The position numbers and the translations under genes were made by a program. DNA of 64,000 bases, taken from the NCBI GenBank assembly GCA_038886535.1, contig JAVZXS010000002.1, forward strand, positions 70,673 through 134,672. Reading direction: 5' to 3'. The notes under the pieces are model-generated. The model searched no databases. It worked only from the letters and a program-made list of their open reading frames with translations, and had not been told where the DNA came from. Source of the DNA: Candidatus Micrarchaeia archaeon (GTDB lineage: Archaea; Micrarchaeota; Micrarchaeia; CABMEP01). Below, piece after piece: positions 4,076 to 30,303 of the stretch; position 1 is the first letter of the stretch; every line of letters begins with the position of its first letter.

Positions 4076-7000
4076 GTGAAATTTGAATTTAATCATTATC
4101 ATATAATTTTATTGAGTGTATTTATTCTTATTTTTTCAATCTCATTAGATTTCGCTTCAATCTCATCAGATGTCGGGGTTAATGTAACCATAGGTCATGC
4201 TCCTGTTTTGCAGATTAATAATTTCACAGTAGTTCCGGATGACATTCCTATTGGAAATTCTGCAAACTTTACAATAGAGGTTTCTAACATCGGTAACAGT
4301 GATGGAAACGTATATTCACTGATCCAAATATATGACGGCTATAATGTAATCGATTCATTTTCATCAGATACATTTTTGATTCCATTTTCATCTACTCCCA
4401 CAAATGTCTCTGTTTTACACGATATGAATTATCCAGTTGGAAATTATATTGCATTAGGATACATTAAATATAATAACAAAACAATAGGCCCAGTTTATTA
4501 TAACTTTTCAATTAATAGAGGCCAGCCACCATTTGTTTATTTAGTTTCTCCATTAAATAATTCCATTACTATTTTAAACAATGACACTCTTGAATTTATT
4601 TTCTATGTTGATGATGTTGATTCAAGTCAATTCACCTGCAGTTTATATCTAGACAATCAAAAGGTTGGAGAAAATAATTCAGTCCAAATTCTTGTGAATA
4701 CATCACTAAAATCCAACGTTTCATTCTCTAATGGAACCCATAGCTGGTTTGTTAGATGTATCGACAATGGAGATAACTCAGCTGATTCTTCTACCTGGAA
4801 ATTACGTACTGGTTCTTTCTGTCAGACACTTGATATAAGCAATCTTTATTATGTGATAAATGAGAATATTTCTTCAAATGAGACATGCTTTACAATTACA
4901 GCTTCAAACGTGACTCTTGACTGTCAAGGTCATTCTATTTTCTTCAACTCTGGTTCTGCAATTGTAGTTCAAGGACAAAATGCTACAGTCAAGAACTGCG
5001 TGCTTCTCCAGAATAATACTCTTTCAGCATCAGCCATACATGTAGACACCACTGGAATGAATTCAAATATTATAGATAATATAATTAGCATAACAGGAAA
5101 TGGAGCAAGAGGGTTGCTGCTTTTAGCAGGAAATATAAATCTAATAAACAACGTTGTTGTTATATCTGGAGACGATTCAATCGCTCTTTACCTACATAAT
5201 AGCAGCGGAGACACAATACAGAACAATTCTCTTACGCTCACTTCAGCTAAGAGCAAATTCATATATGCAGATGTGAATAGTGTTCAGAATTCAATTTCTG
5301 AAAATATTTATGTGCCTTCATCTGAATTAGAAGGATTTTCAATTCAATTCTATGTAAATGAATCTGAACTAAATATTACAATTCCATCTGCAGGAAGAAC
5401 CCCATCATTAGGATTATACATACCTGAAAATTCAACTCAGGAATTGACAGAGGTTAACCTTACAACAATGTTTATAGATTCTTTAAAGGTTCCAATCGAT
5501 ATTGCATCAAAAGAAGGTTATCTTAAGATGCAGATAAACATCTCTGCTTCAAAATCCATTCAAGCCAATACTTCAAATCCAATCATCTTCACAATCAATA
5601 CTTCTTCAATGAACCTTACTTCTGTAGAAGAGTCAAGATTAGGACTTTATGTTTATAACGAGTCATCATCCAATTGGAGTGCACTTGCAACAGACTGCAA
5701 TTTAACATCACATATCTGTAAAGGTTATCTAACACACTTTAGTACTTATGGGTGGATTATTTACATTCCAGTTACAGTAACAGCTGAAAAAACAGAAGAA
5801 GTAAAACAAGTTTCTCTTTCAGGTATGCTTTCATGCACAAAGGAATTAGCTCAGATATCAACAGAACCAAACGCTTCTGTAGAGGTTAGATTCCTTGAGC
5901 ATCCATATGCAAATTCATTGATCAAAGCAGGAAAGGCAGATGAAAATGGAAGCTTTGTATTTATTGCAGATCTCCCTGGAAGATATCAAATATCCGCAAG
6001 AAAAACAGGATTTAAAGACAATTCATTGATATTAACTGCAGCTGATGATTGTGTTCCAAGAATAACATTTGTTAGAAAATGGTTGGAGTGTTCAACGCTA
6101 TCTTGCCTTGTGAACATTCCTGTTCTTACTACACAGATGAAAGATGTAGTAGTAGATCTTTCAGATGTTTTTTCGATAATGACAGGTTCATTCTCAATAA
6201 TAGACAAATATGGTTCATCAGTCAATTTCTATAGCTTTGTTGGAAAAGAATTGAGATTGCCTTTGATTACAGACAGCTTTACAATAAATTCACAATCCAA
6301 TGTAAATATGGAGCAGATAAACGATCTTAAAAATGGCAAGGTTACAGTTGTATTTAAAGGTTCAAATACTGCAAGAGTTTCTGGATTTGTTTTGAATCTT
6401 GGTGACTTTGGAAATAACTATATAAATAATGTAACTTATGTAGCAGATAAAGAGTATGAAATATTTAGATATACTGTTGATGGAAAAACAGTGAAAATAG
6501 ATCAGCAGCTTTATTTATATCCAAACTCTAAATTCGTGTTCAGTGTAAGTCCGGTTCCATTAAGATGTGCATACAGTTATGAATGTCCTTCTGATAGCAT
6601 ATGTCAGAATGGAACATGTGTTGTTGTTCCATGTTCCTGTGGTTATATATTAAACAGAACATGCATACCTTATGAATGTTGCAAGGATTCTGACTGCCCA
6701 TCAGGTAAATCCTGTATATCTCATTTATGTGTATACACACCACCTACAATAACTGAAGAAGAGAAAAGATATATTGCAGACAGGCTAAACGTACTAATTG
6801 TTTCCATCCAATCAGCAAGAGAACAGGGAGAGGATACTACAGCTGCCAGCCAGCTGTTAGAACAAGCAAGAACAGCATATGAAGCAGGTGATTTTGAAAA
6901 GGCAAAAGAATTATTAGCACAAGCTCAACAGATATTCACACAAACTATAGAGACGCAACCTTCAATCCCATATCTTGCAATAATGGTTGTAATAGTATTA

Positions 7001-15875: not shown

Positions 15876-16000
15876 CGCTGGGGGCGAGATTCGAACTCGC
15901 GCAGGCCTTTTGGGCCCAACAGCTTTCTGCATTTTTGATGAAACTCTTTCCTAAAGAGTTTATTAGCAGGCTGCCGCCATAGCCACTAGGCGACCCCAGC
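15876..16000 (-). tRNA. tRNA-Ser (anticodon GCU) with a 39-nt intron at position 37/38
   Basis: The minus-strand read is GCUGGGG-UC-GCC-UAGUGGCUAU-GGC-G-GCAGC-CUGCUA[intron]A-GCUGU-UGGGCCCAAAAGGCCUGC-GCGAG-UUCGAAU-CUCGC-CCCCAGC-G. The long class II variable arm fits Ser. CCA is not encoded. Confidence 0.9.
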
Positions 16001-18664: not shown

Positions 18665-18934
18665 GTGTGGCTGGGCTGATTTAGGTTGGTTTCCAAACCA
18701 AACAGTTTATCTATTCCTAGCCTCCACTCCGCTACCCCATAGACAAGGCGTCTTGCACTTAAGGTTGCTCCTTCCGGCCTGGCCTGGTTCATGCAAGTAA
18801 CCTTCCCATGGGACAGAGCTTCGACGGCTTCAGAATAGGACTGTTTGACATGGTGTCCGTCCTAAATCTTGAGACTCCACTATAGAGGATTTGTGGTTCA
18901 GGGGACCCCTAGCCCCCCAGTCCGCCAGCCACAT
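18665..18934 (-). ncRNA. Signal recognition particle RNA (archaeal 7S/SRP RNA)
   Basis: The minus-strand read contains the helix-8 motif CCAGGCCAGGCCGGAAGGAGCAACC and a G-rich Alu-domain start GUGGCUGGCGGACUGGGGGGCUAGGGGUCCCC. The 5' GUGGCUGG pairs with the 3' CCAGCCAC. It is ~270 nt long in a coding-free gap. The ends are approximate. Confidence 0.8.
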
Positions 18935-22238: not shown

Positions 22239-22345
22239 GCCCCCGTAGTATAACCTGGATAGTACGCGAGCTTGCGGTAGCCATTTTGAAGATAAGTAAT
22301 GGTTGCGAAAAGCTTGTAATGCGGGTTCGAATCCCGTCGGGGGCG
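22239..22345 (+). tRNA. tRNA-Arg (anticodon GCG) with a 33-nt intron at position 37/38
   Basis: It reads GCCCCCG-UA-GUAU-AACCUGGAUA-GUAC-G-CGAGC-UUGCGG[intron]A-GCUUG-UAAU-GCGGG-UUCGAAU-CCCGU-CGGGGGC-G. Confidence 0.85.
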
Positions 22346-27157: not shown

Positions 27158-27760
27158 TTGGCTATATTTGTTTTGACTGGTACACCTGGAACAGGAAAAT
27201 CTTCAATAGCGAATTATTTTGCAAAAAAGAAATGGGCAATTATAGATCTAAATGATCTTGTGAATAAAAAGCATTTGTGGTATACGAAAGAAAAAGGAAG
27301 TAAAGTTGTCGATATCGCTTCTCTTAAAAGAGAGACCATTAAAGAAATATCCAGAATTAAAAATAAATATAAAATATCCAAAGAACCAAATAATGAACTT
27401 AATATTATAATAGAAGGGCATTTAGCATGTGAGATTACATTACCTGTTGATGCAGTCATCGTTCTTAGAACTAGACCAGACATATTAATTAAAAGATTGA
27501 TTAAAAGGAAATATCCAAAATATAAAATAAGTGAAAATGTCCAAGTTGAAATTATTGATTACTGTACAAAAAAAGCAGAAGAAAATTATAAATGCCCTAT
27601 TTATGAAATAGATTCTTCAGGTCCTCTTAGAATTACAACAAATAAATTAAATAAGATAGTAAAACAATTTTCAAATAAAAATAAAAAAAACATTAATAAA
27701 TCGATAAACTGGCTTAGATATGCTTTCAAGAAAGAGATTGCGAAATATCTGTTTGAATAG
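27158..27760 (+). CDS. Fap7/adenylate kinase isoenzyme-6-like P-loop NTPase
   Basis: The N-terminal P-loop is MAIFVLTGTPGTGKSSIANYF. The size (~200 aa) and IIEGHLA fit the family. The start is TTG, 5 nt after ggtg. Confidence 0.65.
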   Translation: MAIFVLTGTPGTGKSSIANYFAKKKWAIIDLNDLVNKKHLWYTKEKGSKVVDIASLKRETIKEISRIKNKYKISKEPNNELNIIIEGHLACEITLPVDAVIVLRTRPDILIKRLIKRKYPKYKISENVQVEIIDYCTKKAEENYKCPIYEIDSSGPLRITTNKLNKIVKQFSNKNKKNINKSINWLRYAFKKEIAKYLFE

Positions 27761-27811: not shown

Positions 27812-28267
27812 ATGAAAAAGAAATATAAAGGGAAAAAAGGACAAATAGCATTTGAAACTATTCTTATTGTCGGATTTGTATTCCTTCTACTTATTCCACT
27901 TATTTTTATATTATTCAATCGTTCTGTTTCTATTCAAGATGAACTTACAACTATACAAACTTCAAGAGCACTCTTTACTCTTGTCTCCGCTGTTGATTCT
28001 GTTGGAGTACTGGGTCCAAATAACAGTATAATTGTAGAAGTAGTATTTCCTAATAATATTAAAAAGCTATCAATAGGCAGTGATAATAATAGAGAGATAT
28101 CCGCGGTTTTAGCCACTTCACTTGGAGATATACATATAGTTAAAATGTCTCAATTTAATATCTCTTCAACATACATATTTCCAGAAGGCAATATAAAATC
28201 AGGAACATATAGATTCAAAATTGTATACTCAGAAGATGAAAAAGAAGTAAAAATAAGTTTAGATTAA
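27812..28267 (+). CDS. Archaeal type IV pilin-like protein (class III signal peptide)
   Basis: MKKKYKGKKG/QIAFETILIVGFVFLLLIPLIFILF has a basic leader, Gly at -1, Gln at +1, Glu at +5 and a hydrophobic helix (DUF361/EppA-substrate-like). SD agtgatc lies upstream. Confidence 0.6.
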   Translation: MKKKYKGKKGQIAFETILIVGFVFLLLIPLIFILFNRSVSIQDELTTIQTSRALFTLVSAVDSVGVLGPNNSIIVEVVFPNNIKKLSIGSDNNREISAVLATSLGDIHIVKMSQFNISSTYIFPEGNIKSGTYRFKIVYSEDEKEVKISLD

Positions 28268-28293
28268 TTAAAATAAAAAATTTTAAAAAAGAA

Positions 28294-29436
28294 TTATTCA
28301 TTTTCTGGCTTTCCTGGATAAAGATCGCCTTCTTGTATTTGTATAGATATACTTCTAAGTTTTCCGAATCCACTTCTTTTACCTTTTAATTTATCTTTTT
28401 CTTGTTTTATCTTCTTATCAGCTTCTTTAAGTATGTCTTTAAGCACTGCAAATAACTTCCAGCCATGCGAGCTTACTTCAAATGTCTTCTTGCCAGTTAC
28501 AAGCATTTTCATTGTATATTTGTGCCTCCTTCCTTCTGGAGAATATTTCTTTATATTTAATCTTACGAATTCAATCGGCATTATTTGTTCAAATGAACTT
28601 GCAAATTCGTTTATTTCATTATATATATCTTGTTTGTATTGTTTATCCTCTTCATCAAGTCCTATTATTTCAATCACAGTTGCGTGTTTTGGTATTGCAC
28701 TCTTTATTATGTCGATTGCAGTTATTATTCCTATTTTATCATCTCCTTCGACAAGAAGAGACGATATTTGATTTTTTTTCATAATCTTTGCAGCTTCTCT
28801 TAGCGATGTAGAAGGAGAAGTTTTTATCAATTTTGGAGAAGAACCAACTACTGTTTGAAGTAAAATCGAACTCGTTTTTTCCTTTTCTCTTCCCATTGGG
28901 ACTTTGGTTTTTACTTTTTGCAGGAGTGGAAGTATATCTATACTACTTAAAATTGCAACAGGTTTTCCAGCATCGGTTATTACTAGATGGTGTTTTCCTG
29001 TTTTTCTCATCAAAGCAGCTGCTTTAGATACATTTTCTTTTATATCCATCTTTTCGATAGGCATGTTCATAACATCTTCAACTTTTAGAGGTGGAATTTT
29101 GTCTTCAGCTATCAATTCTTCTAAAATATCAGTATTTTTTACAATTCCAATTATTGAATCACCATCAACAATCGGTAGTTCTCTGTATCCATCAACGAAC
29201 ATAGAGATCTTTCTTTCTATTGAATCTCCTTCCTTCAATAGAGGAGCTTTCCATGCATGTTTTTCAACCTTTGCATCTGGAGAATATTGGATTGTTTTTA
29301 GAGTTCTATCCGATATGATTCCAATGTATTTTCCATTTTTCTGAATTATTATAGTCGTTATACCTTGCTCTATCAATTTAGCTGCCTTCGCCATTGTTTC
29401 TGTAGAATCAAGTATCGTTGCGGGTCTTATAATCAT
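28294..29436 (-). CDS. CBS-domain (two Bateman modules) protein with C-terminal HPF/RaiA-like domain
   Basis: There are four CBS motifs in aa ~1-247 (e.g. YIGIISDRTLK, IIGIVKNTDILE, PVAILSSIDILP, KIGIITAIDIIK). Aa 252-352 (nt 28381-28683) follow a beta-alpha-beta-beta-beta-alpha pattern ending in KQEKDKLKGK, like HPF. A tandem SD-like duplication (attttcacct x2 on the + strand, 29437-29458) lies just upstream. Confidence 0.6.
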   Translation of the reverse strand: MIIRPATILDSTETMAKAAKLIEQGITTIIIQKNGKYIGIISDRTLKTIQYSPDAKVEKHAWKAPLLKEGDSIERKISMFVDGYRELPIVDGDSIIGIVKNTDILEELIAEDKIPPLKVEDVMNMPIEKMDIKENVSKAAALMRKTGKHHLVITDAGKPVAILSSIDILPLLQKVKTKVPMGREKEKTSSILLQTVVGSSPKLIKTSPSTSLREAAKIMKKNQISSLLVEGDDKIGIITAIDIIKSAIPKHATVIEIIGLDEEDKQYKQDIYNEINEFASSFEQIMPIEFVRLNIKKYSPEGRRHKYTMKMLVTGKKTFEVSSHGWKLFAVLKDILKEADKKIKQEKDKLKGKRSGFGKLRSISIQIQEGDLYPGKPENE

Positions 29437-29469
29437 ATTTTCACCTCAATTTTCACCTTAATTTAAAAA

Positions 29470-29742
29470 TCATTTTCTTTTCATAAATGATTTTAATAAG
29501 AAAAAATTACTATCAGACATTATACATTCAATCTCATTTTTTATTCCGATCGTATCATATACTATAATTTTCACCTTTACTTTTCCAAGTTCCTTTCTCT
29601 CTATAATCATCAAGTCATAGAGATAACCTATAGGCACATTAAGTTTTAGATCTTTATGCCTAATATTGATATTTTCCTCATCTGCTACAATTTCTCCAGC
29701 GGGAGTTCCGAACACATCAGAAAAAATAGGTATTTTTACCAT
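29470..29742 (-). CDS. Hypothetical small protein
   Basis: It is a 90-aa ORF co-directional with the CBS gene. I recognise no family and see no SD. Confidence 0.35.
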   Translation of the reverse strand: MVKIPIFSDVFGTPAGEIVADEENINIRHKDLKLNVPIGYLYDLMIIERKELGKVKVKIIVYDTIGIKNEIECIMSDSNFFLLKSFMKRK

Positions 29743-29793: not shown

Positions 29794-30303
29794 ATGGCAA
29801 AATTGAAATATTTTAAATCTTTAAAAGGTCAAGCAGCAACAGAATTTTTATTTACTTACGGTTGGGCAATACTTTTAGTGCTTGTTATAATGGCGATTCT
29901 TTATTCTTCCATATTCAAACCTGAATTCTATGTTGCAGAAAGATGTGACATTGGTCCAGGTATAGCCTGTGATATGTTTTATCTAAATAAAACTTCATCA
30001 GGTCTCAATTTTACTCTTTACGCCCATAACTCACTAGGATTCGATGTTAATATAACAAGCTTAAATTTCACATTGCATGATAGGATTAACAATCAAAAAT
30101 ATGTTAAGACAGTATATTTATCTAAAACTATAAAAGATAAAGAATCATTTAGTGCAAATGTGCTCTTCAACGTGGATAATTTAGATAGTGTAGTTCCTGG
30201 AACTCTGTATTCGATATACTTTACGATTAACTTCAAAAATAATGAAATAAGCTCTCCTCCAGAGCATGTAACAGCCGGAATAATAAACGTAAGAGTTTCC
30301 TAA
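29794..30303 (+). CDS. Archaeal type IV pilin-like protein (class III signal peptide)
   Basis: MAKLKYFKSLKG/QAATEFLFTYGWAILLVLVIMAILY has the same KG/Q-x-A-x-E processing-site pattern as the 27812 gene. Confidence 0.65.
   Translation: MAKLKYFKSLKGQAATEFLFTYGWAILLVLVIMAILYSSIFKPEFYVAERCDIGPGIACDMFYLNKTSSGLNFTLYAHNSLGFDVNITSLNFTLHDRINNQKYVKTVYLSKTIKDKESFSANVLFNVDNLDSVVPGTLYSIYFTINFKNNEISSPPEHVTAGIINVRVS

Follow-up and report, generated by a model that had tools for sequence, protein, structure and literature searches.

A putative HibA/AHA-family ribosome hibernation factor encoded by an uncultivated Micrarchaeon

HibA and AHA are archaeal ribosome hibernation factors of one family. HibA was described as PAB0961 of P. 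abyssi and in Thermococcus (Madru et al., Nat Commun Apr 2026, bioRxiv Oct 2025; PDB 9SR9-9SRF, 9T7H; PMC13324472), and AHA is HVO_2384 of Haloferax volcanii (Souza et al., bioRxiv Feb 2026; PMC12934967). According to the published survey, about 47% of archaeal genomes have HibA, with 3,160 homologs in 17 phyla, and the genomes listed in the survey include Micrarchaeota (PMC13324472). It has been observed by cryo-EM on 70S ribosomes and inhibits translation in vitro, and deletion of hibA in T. barophilus delays recovery and is accompanied by loss of 70S ribosomes (PMC13324472). Deletion of the AHA gene in H. volcanii results in a stationary-phase loss of viability and of ribosomal proteins (PMC12934967). 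On the 70S ribosome, the binding sites of the family are the decoding centre and the peptidyl-transferase centre (PTC), uL5 or L1 stalk. AHA binds AMP at CBS3/CBS4, in sites that correspond to the regulatory sites of AMPK-gamma (PMC12934967). The affinity of P. abyssi HibA decreases from AMP through ADP to ATP, and neither AMP nor ATP clearly altered its ribosome binding (PMC13324472).

A preliminary description of the DNA studied here reached, from the sequence alone, what cryo-EM established in 2025-2026: in archaea, a bacterial-type HPF/RaiA domain joined to an AMPK-gamma-like CBS tetrad silences and stores ribosomes. Its statements that HPF is absent from archaea (PMC13324472) and that the domain combination was not described (PMC13324472, PMC12934967) are out of date. 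The energy-charge gating that it proposed is not established, even for P. abyssi HibA, whose ribosome binding showed no clear response to AMP or ATP (PMC13324472).

Other ribosome-bound archaeal CBS proteins are the stand-alone CBS-tetrad hibernation factors SriA-D of M. acetivorans (PDB 9ZNF/9ZNG/9ZNI), ARC-P and ARC-A of Methanolobus, and Dri of Pyrobaculum (9E6Q/9E7F). Unlike the Micrarchaeal protein, these have no HPF/RaiA domain. Dri has a pair of CBS tetrads. The ARC and Sri factors act as separate proteins with other occlusion elements. The bacterial and plastid proteins HPF and RaiA (YfiA, pY) and the N-terminal domain of long HPF (PF02482, Ribosomal_S30AE) have the fold and the order of secondary structure elements of the Micrarchaeal C-terminal domain. 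The bacterial proteins stand alone or carry the long-HPF dimerisation domain, whereas the Micrarchaeal domain lies behind a CBS tetrad and is followed by only a 28-aa disordered tail.

Domain organization of the 380-aa protein

The window (the whole stretch of 64,000 nucleotides that was analysed) contains a minus-strand gene for a 380-aa protein, with its stop codon at 28294-28296 (Table 1). No further CBS or HPF gene was found in the window by six-frame hmmsearch. In a single-sequence search of the PDB, P. abyssi HibA ranks first (9sr9_H, E=5.2e-17), and the match forms one stretch over both domains (aa 11-348 against 19-373). With the clade profile the E value is 6.7e-33 and with a 61-member family profile it is 6.3e-74. 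Seven more HibA ribosome entries in the PDB were matched, and the family profile also matches 9l96_a, a second solved full-length homolog (E=3.2e-63). The CBS tetrad, the PTC loop and the HPF-type domain are shared with HibA and AHA, with homology across nearly the whole length. Identity with P. abyssi HibA is low, 24% overall and 20.8% in the HPF domain, which would count against orthology. The sequence comparisons and models suggest, with a probability of about 85%, that the product is the Micrarchaeota (DPANN) ortholog of HibA, alias AHA. This reading rests on the homology of the two domains and their folds, the recurrence of the fusion and purifying selection. The fusion of CBS and HPF/RaiA domains was already published in 2025-2026 as HibA/AHA, and the Micrarchaeal protein is an ordinary member.

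Table 1. Features of the hibA locus, in window coordinates.
Feature	Position	Strand	Remarks
hibA/AHA-family gene	28294..29436	(-)	380-aa CBS-tetrad + HPF/RaiA-like ORF, ATG start
N-terminal CBS tetrad, aa 1-247	28696..29436	(-)	Pfam CBS, AF2, Foldseek
CBS motifs (approximate aa)			CBS1 3-48, CBS2 58-110, CBS3 118-176, CBS4 193-247
CBS3-CBS4 extended loop, aa 173-192 (QKVKTKVPMGREKEKTSSIL)	28861..28920	(-)	putative counterpart of HibA 'PTC loop' / AHA 'loop 3'
HPF/RaiA-like domain, aa 252-352	28381..28683	(-)	AF2 topology, Foldseek, clade profile
Clade-specific 28-aa C-terminal tail (KRSGFGKLRSISIQIQEGDLYPGKPENE)	28297..28380	(-)	predicted disordered
Proximal Shine-Dalgarno-like GAGGTGA	29441..29447	(-)	4 nt before ATG
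Distal SD-like copy AAGGTGA	29453..29459	(-)	part of exact 10-nt repeat, 12-nt period
Conserved 90-aa orphan gene	29470..29742	(-)	directly upstream, 33-nt gap to hibA

The four CBS motifs noted in the preliminary description are borne out by both searches and models. Pfam CBS (PF00571) matches the protein with E=1.5e-27 in four stretches, three of which pass E<=0.01, and the AlphaFold (AF2) model has four beta-alpha-beta-beta-alpha units over aa 7-246, mostly with pLDDT values of 80-94. Across the clade, the Asp that opens the last helix of each motif (D43, D103, D167, D242) does not vary, and neither do the h-h-S/T-x-x-D motifs of CBS3 (S164, D167) and CBS4 (G236, D242). At the level of sequence, the latter hint at adenine-nucleotide binding in the CBS3/CBS4 cleft. 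Foldseek with the full-length model matched SriA, MJ1225, AMPK-gamma and Dri over 260-290 columns. The tetrad is structurally closest to Sri and Dri: the top match is 9znf_4 (70S with SriA and SriB, E 4e-16), and 9e6q_3 (Dri) is matched with E 1e-12. Profile searches of PDB sequences also match Sri and Dri chains, over the CBS region only. AMPK gamma and MJ1225 form a four-CBS disc like that of the Micrarchaeal module (Foldseek TM on target 0.58-0.66, identity 11-22%); in contrast to them, the Micrarchaeal protein has no kinase partners and has a predicted ribosome-binding C-terminal domain. Only CBS-tetrad proteins were retrieved with the full-length model because the CBS module dominates it and because the PDB copy used by Foldseek, which ends on 8 April 2026, apparently predates the release of the HibA entries.

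The extended loop between CBS3 and CBS4 aligns with residues 187-206 of P. abyssi HibA, in the loop that in HibA and AHA inserts into the PTC. In the AF2 model aa 177-188 have pLDDT values below 50, and K176, K178, P180, M181, G182, E184 and K185 are invariant or nearly so in the clade. Residues R190, K192, E201 and K202 of P. abyssi HibA touch the PTC (PMC13324472), and a K/R-x-K/R ... E-K signature is common to 61 diverse family members. Compared with P. abyssi HibA, the Micrarchaeal loop is about three to four residues shorter, a short type that is common among the nearest relatives, and the aromatic Y195, which stacks on A2834, is replaced by Met.

The C-terminal domain has the boundaries given in the preliminary description, which are correct (Table 1), and its HPF/RaiA-like nature is upheld by profile and fold comparison. 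A clade profile of the domain searched against the PDB has HPF/RaiA proteins as its four best matches (8rd8_D, E=0.0016; 4v8h_AX, 0.0055; 2rql, 0.015; 6h4n, 0.044). Foldseek with a separate AlphaFold model of the domain returned HPF, RaiA, pY and YfiA entries for all of the top 24 matches, the best being 6h4n_x (E 3.5e-5, TM 0.75 on target). These sequence and model comparisons indicate that the resemblance to HPF exceeds chance. Searches with single sequences are less revealing. The match to Pfam PF02482 that the preliminary description had envisaged is absent from the window protein even at E<=10, Pfam and NCBIfam searches with the isolated domain found nothing, and a single-sequence PDB search places RaiA first at a non-significant E=0.38. 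The absent PF02482 match and the non-significant RaiA match would count against the HibA-ortholog reading. Among relatives, PF02482 matches 11 of the 18 clade members at E<=1 (best 6.8e-5) and, at E<=0.01, 33 of the 61 family representatives (best 5.1e-7). With no such match for the window protein itself, the link to HPF requires profile or fold comparison. Likewise, a word-indexed homolog search retrieved nothing when the query was limited to the C-terminal domain, whereas a full-length query and an index-free profile search succeeded.

Three of the four points at which the preliminary description had matched the domain to E. coli HPF recur in HMMER alignments of the clade profile with 4v8h_AX and 2rql_A, namely V-x-G before strand 4, LFAVL opposite MYAAI, and KDKLK, which E. 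coli HPF and the Micrarchaeal domain have in common at the end of alpha2. The I-x-G start does not, the alignment beginning too late. The beta2-beta3 loop is about five residues longer than in bacterial HPF, and in the HMMER alignment E. coli HPF has a gap of five residues opposite SPEGRRHK. The beta1-alpha1 loop of the AF2 model is not obviously longer than that of E. coli HPF. Archaea-specific insertions are present at beta13-alpha11 and beta14-beta15 in the HPF domain of P. abyssi HibA (PMC13324472).

Helix alpha1 of the Micrarchaeal domain is acidic compared with that of P. abyssi HibA. The net charge is -7 in the beta1-alpha1 segment, +7 in the beta-sheet and +3 in alpha2. In a pairwise alignment, three residues of the P. 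abyssi protein that contact 16S rRNA are altered (R292 to D270, R299 to E277 and Y317 to N294), and residues corresponding to P. abyssi contacts are retained at P65, R144, K176, K178, E/K 184-187, Y267 and K268. The lost contact residues and the acidic segment would also weigh against the HibA-ortholog reading.

Recurrence, selection and the C-terminal tail

The fusion is present in 17 full-length Micrarchaeal protein clusters with 46-94% identity. Fifteen of these are 379-381 aa long, and the other two are 389 and 373 aa. It is also present in at least 60 representatives that are more distant than the Micrarchaeal clusters, so that the architecture is not a misassembly. The C-terminal profile matches 516 representatives at E<=1e-3; among the best 149 of these, 75 are 331-430 aa long with the domain at the C-terminus. 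CBS domains are present in all 61 family representatives scanned. The top entry of the representative search, P0020 (4,561 aa, 78 stretches), was discarded as a low-complexity artefact because its lysine-rich repeat matches only the last helix and the tail (profile positions 77-118). Relative to a 94%-identical homolog, hibA has a dN/dS of 0.085, and purifying selection is strong on all three regions of the protein. A full two-domain factor is thus kept under strong selection in a genome-reduced DPANN lineage.

The tail is 28 aa long compared with a family median of 7 aa, and has a pLDDT below 50 in the AF2 models. The clade shows almost no variation at I367, G370, L372, Y373, P374 and G375, and the conserved GDLYPGKP motif distinguishes the tail from P. 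abyssi HibA. Its dN is 0 and its dS 0.28 relative to the 94% relative, and its pN of 0.03-0.045 relative to 79-81% relatives is the lowest among the three protein regions. Looser versions of the tail are found in P0021-P0023, P0025, P0028 and P0042.

Upstream elements and the 90-aa neighbour

A G/A-G-G-G-T-G sequence is present at the place of the proximal SD in six related loci (L002, L003, L004, L006, L007 and L008), and such an SD core precedes only 9 of the 56 long ORFs of the window. The duplicated SD of the preliminary description exists as an exact repeat, AGGTGAAAAT-TG-AGGTGAAAAT, at 29437-29458 on the minus strand. The window has a single occurrence of it, where shuffles give an expectation of 0. 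The special translational control that was read into it has no support, since the distal copy is not conserved. In the 94% relatives L006 and L007 its site reads AAAGTTAAAAT, and among the relatives whose upstream regions were compared it is absent from L002, L003, L004 and L008. The duplicated SD was therefore ruled out as a regulatory element, and the distal copy is probably strain-specific and without function.

The 90-aa gene keeps its position and strand in L001-L004 and L006-L008, and is probably co-transcribed with hibA. Its products form a Micrarchaeal family of 24 clusters, all 89-90 aa long and 43-100% identical, with no credible match in Pfam, NCBIfam or PDB profile searches. For ten of the clusters, the contig has the same length as that of a HibA homolog. 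The gene is absent upstream of HibA relatives with 37% and 28% identity, and as a companion gene it is a Micrarchaeal feature that distinguishes the locus from that of P. abyssi HibA. One tentative, rather doubtful proposal is that the two genes form a clade-specific module, in which the 90-aa protein would be a partner of HibA, such as a factor for sequestration or release, or another piece bound to the ribosome, and the tail (…IQIQEGDLYPGKPENE) would either dock the partner or form a new plug at the mRNA exit and the anti-SD region. If true, a genome-reduced symbiont would be using a regulated form of HibA hibernation. The ARC dual-factor system was rejected as a model for the partner because ARC-P and ARC-A are both four-CBS proteins and not small. 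The tail and the companion gene are small leads on the regulation of HibA.

Proposed mechanism and alternative readings

The structures solved by cryo-EM for HibA of P. abyssi and AHA of Hfx. volcanii suggest, by homology, how the Micrarchaeal protein would act. The HPF/RaiA-like domain would occupy the 30S decoding centre of vacant 70S ribosomes, overlapping the mRNA path and the anticodon positions of the A- and P-site tRNAs. The basic conserved tail would follow the mRNA channel in the direction of the mRNA exit and the anti-SD region. The N-terminal CBS tetrad would dock on the 50S subunit, with the CBS3-CBS4 loop able to enter the peptidyl-transferase centre. Because both domains would dock in this way, a single polypeptide would clamp the two subunits and block translation, and the functional sites of the clamped ribosomes would be protected from degradation in starvation or stationary phase. 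AMP and other adenine nucleotides are probable ligands of the CBS3/CBS4 cleft. HibA would be translated from a strong SD, probably as the second product of a two-gene transcript after the clade-specific 90-aa gene.

The same fold and ribosome site could serve a different role, that of a constitutive translation brake or a means of ribosome storage in a slow-growing episymbiotic DPANN cell, which would be modified by the tail and the 90-aa partner and not be induced by stress. The clade-specific tail, which is the most conserved part of the protein, the 90-aa gene that immediately precedes hibA throughout this clade and in no other, and an SD that is among the few strong ones in the window are consistent with such a role. 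They fit ordinary HibA function equally well, however, and basic tails of varied length are present in other family members; a constitutive brake is considered unlikely. A further departure from HibA would be a regulator with a CBS tetrad in which the HPF-like domain, repurposed, binds a different RNA or protein under the control of AMP/ATP and does not act on the ribosome. CBS tetrads do have many roles, as in the HhpR transcription factor and AMPK-gamma, P. abyssi HibA was reportedly also pulled down together with DNA replication and recombination proteins (PMC13324472), and several of its basic rRNA-contact residues are acidic in the Micrarchaeal protein. Yet the beta-sheet and alpha2 of the HPF domain are still basic, the PTC loop is conserved along with the two domains in a protein that is homologous to ribosome-bound HibA nearly end to end, and all three regions are under strong purifying selection, which makes a repurposed domain very unlikely.

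The lack of any significant match in Pfam or the PDB for the isolated C-terminal domain might point instead to a chance resemblance, a misassembled CBS/HPF chimera or a decaying pseudogene. An artefact of this kind is refuted by the recurrence of the fusion and by selection: assemblies from NCBI, JGI, ENA and Logan have the identical architecture on contigs that are independent of one another, the length is constant in 15 of the 17 clusters and dN/dS is low. Profile and fold searches, moreover, converge on HPF/RaiA and HibA. Orthology with HibA/AHA is the preferred reading, and the 380-aa protein and its Micrarchaeal relatives could be re-annotated in this sense.

At NCBI these proteins are labelled only 'CBS domain-containing protein', and the JGI name of one relative (P0018) is 'CBS domain-containing protein/ribosome-associated translation inhibitor RaiA'.

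Family membership and recurrence

The ORF named in the preliminary description is real, and its product (here the window protein, encoded by hibA) belongs to the HibA/AHA family of hibernation factors, of which it is a previously unstudied Micrarchaeal member. It shows four defining features of HibA/AHA that can be tested in silico: a four-CBS module, an extended loop after CBS3, an HPF/RaiA-like domain and sequence homology to a characterised member across both domains. Cryo-EM located HibA on the 70S ribosomes of Pyrococcus abyssi (Madru et al., bioRxiv Oct 2025; Nat Commun Apr 2026, PMC13324472), and its family occurs in 47% of archaeal genomes (PMC13324472). AHA of Haloferax volcanii belongs to the same family, with 3,160 homologs across 17 phyla (Souza et al., PMC12934967). 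Deletion of hibA in T. barophilus results in late recovery from stationary phase and loss of 70S ribosomes (PMC13324472).

In the PDB, the sequence closest to the window protein is that of P. abyssi HibA (9sr9_H, E=5.2e-17, 24% identity), matched in one stretch that pairs aa 11-348 with HibA 19-373. This chain was deposited as 'Dehydrogenase' and is also present in 9SRA-9SRF and 9T7H. A profile of the clade of Micrarchaeal relatives matches it at E 6.7e-33, and a 61-member family profile, seeded with the C-terminal domain of the window protein, matches it end to end (E 6.3e-74). The family profile also identifies a second solved full-length homolog, 9l96_a (E 3.2e-63; also 9l98, 9l9c, 9l9v), a 406-aa 'CBS domain-containing protein' chain matched end to end, including the HPF-like domain. 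The one-stretch homology to HibA bears out the core of the earlier interpretation, a hibernation factor that joins CBS and HPF/RaiA domains; the accompanying claim of a novel architecture is out of date, as HibA and AHA are already described.

Seventeen full-length relatives share 46-94% identity with the window protein; most are 379-381 aa long, and they are labelled Candidatus Micrarchaeia or Micrarchaeota wherever the source gives a name. The gene and its conserved neighbourhood recur on independent contigs from NCBI, JGI, ENA and Logan, and dN/dS is 0.085 against the 94%-identical ortholog; this recurrence and constraint exclude misassembly, chance and a pseudogene. In the same comparison constraint extends to all three protein regions; at dS=0.28, the tail shows zero amino-acid changes. 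An index-free search with the C-terminal profile found 516 representatives at E≤1e-3. Within the top 149 of these, 75 are 331-430 aa long with the HPF-like domain C-terminal and 46 are stand-alone proteins of ≤140 aa; CBS was present in all 61 long representatives scanned. A 28%-identity relative (P0018) already bears the JGI name 'CBS domain-containing protein/ribosome-associated translation inhibitor RaiA'. The 4,561-aa P0020, in which 78 stretches match profile positions 77-118 (last helix and basic tail), was rejected as a homolog; it is a lysine/arginine-rich repeat protein and a low-complexity artefact.

Domain structure and the HPF-like domain

Pfam detects CBS (PF00571, E=1.5e-27) in four stretches. 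The full-length AlphaFold2 model (18 homologs as input, mean pLDDT 78.7) places four beta-alpha-beta-beta-alpha CBS units inside aa 7-246 and predicts disorder at aa 177-188 and aa 352-380.

Taken alone, the C-terminal 133 aa find no match in Pfam or NCBIfam, and the first PDB match of this single sequence, RaiA chain 8rd8_D, is not significant (E=0.38). A 13-sequence clade profile of the domain has only HPF/RaiA proteins as its four best PDB matches: 8rd8_D (E 0.0016), 4v8h_AX (E 0.0055), 2rql_A (E 0.015) and 6h4n_x (E 0.044). Of 18 clade members, 11 match PF02482 (Ribosomal_S30AE) at E≤1 (best 6.8e-5); in the more distant part of the family, 33 of 61 representatives do so at E≤0.01 (best 5.1e-7). 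Modelled on its own with AF2 (pLDDT 71; 76-85 across most of the core), the domain gave 24 top Foldseek matches in the PDB, all of them HPF, RaiA/YfiA, plastid pY, long-HPF N-domains or mycobacterial RafH/MPY. The best is 6h4n_x (E 3.5e-5, TM 0.75 on target), and the matches that come next have E above 0.04. The HPF/RaiA likeness of the domain therefore stands on the clade profile, the PF02482 matches of relatives and the Foldseek results. Three of the four anchor points originally proposed from E. coli HPF (V-x-G, LFAVL/MYAAI and KDKLK) are reproduced in the profile alignments, the fourth, the I-x-G start, lying ahead of the aligned stretch; relative to E. coli HPF, these alignments also reveal five extra residues between strands 2 and 3.

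Ribosome contacts of HibA, predicted mechanism and probable adenylate binding

In P. abyssi HibA, the 'PTC loop' (190-207) of the third CBS domain enters the peptidyl-transferase centre, three 50S positions are open to the CBS module (PTC, uL5, L1 stalk), and the C-terminal end lies close to an SD:anti-SD duplex (PMC13324472). The CBS3-CBS4 loop of the window protein (aa 173-192) aligns with the PTC loop and bears the family-wide basic...E-K signature, whose P. abyssi counterparts R190, K192, E201 and K202 contact PTC nucleotides. The PTC loop of 9l96_a is much longer. Several P. abyssi h44/h31 contact residues are not kept in the pairwise alignment (D270, E277 and N294 in the window protein), and the beta1-alpha1 segment is acidic (net charge -7); the sheet and last helix of the HPF-like domain are still basic.

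By homology, the HPF-like domain would plug the decoding centre of vacant 70S ribosomes, with the tail running along the mRNA path in the direction of the exit. On the 50S subunit, the tRNA space at A/P (or P/E, or E) would be covered by the CBS disc, and the CBS3-CBS4 loop would reach into the PTC. A single polypeptide would thus hold both subunits together and shield their functional sites.

AHA carries two AMP molecules at CBS3/CBS4 (PMC12934967). HibA binds AMP with a Kd of 12 uM, tighter than ADP or ATP, and neither AMP nor ATP clearly influences its ribosome binding (PMC13324472). The window protein likely binds adenylates at CBS3/CBS4, because the Asp of each CBS motif (D43, D103, D167, D242) is invariant in the clade. 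That it is 'energy-charge-gated' is a hypothesis, as is any regulatory meaning of adenylate binding in the model proteins themselves.

The tail, the upstream gene and the surroundings

The C-terminal tail, KRSGFGKLRSISIQIQEGDLYPGKPENE, comprises 28 aa versus a family median of 7 aa. Although predicted to be disordered, it is more conserved than any other part of the window protein; looser versions occur in a few neighbouring representatives. In every locus read of the clade with at least 48% identity, a gene for a 90-aa protein lies 24-51 nt upstream of hibA on the same strand. The protein forms 24 clusters, all Micrarchaeal and of constant length (89-90 aa), and in 10 of these the contigs equal in size those of HibA homologs. 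It has no credible match in Pfam, NCBIfam or PDB, and the gene is absent upstream of hibA in the 37%- and 28%-identity relatives. The 90-aa protein may be a HibA partner or may simply be syntenic; a clade-specific two-gene module of HibA, tail and 90-aa protein seems improbable. At the P0018 locus, a 138-aa gene (5068-5484, +) without a Pfam match overlaps the hibA stop codon by 4 nt; this may be another clade's own, different small partner gene.

Selected features of the window
Feature	Position	Strand	Remarks
tRNA	15876-16000	-	125 nt; Rfam call, not in ARAGORN
Archaeal SRP RNA	18667-18932	-	
tRNA	22239-22345	+	107 nt; Rfam call, not in ARAGORN
AAA_18/PRK03839 'putative kinase'	27158-27760	+	88 bits, under NCBIfam cutoff 152
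Small flanking ORF	27812-28267	+	N-terminus K-G-Q-(I/A)-A-(F/T)-E, then hydrophobic helix
T6, T6, T4 runs	28270-28293	-	TAATTCTTTTTTAAAATTTTTTATTTT; right after hibA stop
hibA	28294-29436	-	380 aa, ATG start
SD-like repeat	29437-29458	-	AGGTGAAAAT-TG-AGGTGAAAAT
90-aa orphan gene	29470-29742	-	MVKIPIFSDVFGTPAGEI...; directly upstream of hibA
Small flanking ORF	29794-30303	+	N-terminus K-G-Q-(I/A)-A-(F/T)-E, then hydrophobic helix

The duplicated SD-like repeat is exact and occurs nowhere else in the window. Its proximal copy, GAGGTGA, is conserved in relatives; in place of the distal copy the 94% relative has AAAGTT, and other relatives lack that copy. The special translational control once suggested by the repeat finds no support, the distal copy being a strain-level duplication lost in the 94% relative. 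Strong SD cores precede only 9 of 56 long ORFs in the window, hibA among them, and the strong proximal SD fits hibA as an internal gene of a short operon. Because the 90-aa gene has a T5 run after its stop codon, its co-transcription with hibA is not certain. Oligo-T runs, also present after hibA, are typical archaeal termination signals.

No second CBS or HPF-like ORF is found within the window. The neighbours of hibA encode a PrsW-family protease, the AAA_18/PRK03839 putative kinase, a MEMO1/AmmeMemoRadiSam-B protein, a type 2 IPP isomerase and a Glu/Gln-tRNA synthetase. The downstream block (a 148-151-aa ORF, the kinase and PrsW) is syntenic as far as the 37%-identity relative, where the kinase still adjoins hibA on the opposite strand. 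We take this kinase to belong to the Fap7/AK6-like adenylate-kinase family, tied to small-subunit maturation. Both small ORFs that flank hibA are syntenic in relatives and have no credible Pfam or NCBIfam match, one having a sub-threshold FNIP match only. Their N-termini (KGQIAFE... and KGQAATEFL...) make them candidates for archaeal signal peptides of class III (type IV pilin-like). The two Rfam-only tRNAs are probably intron-containing archaeal tRNAs.
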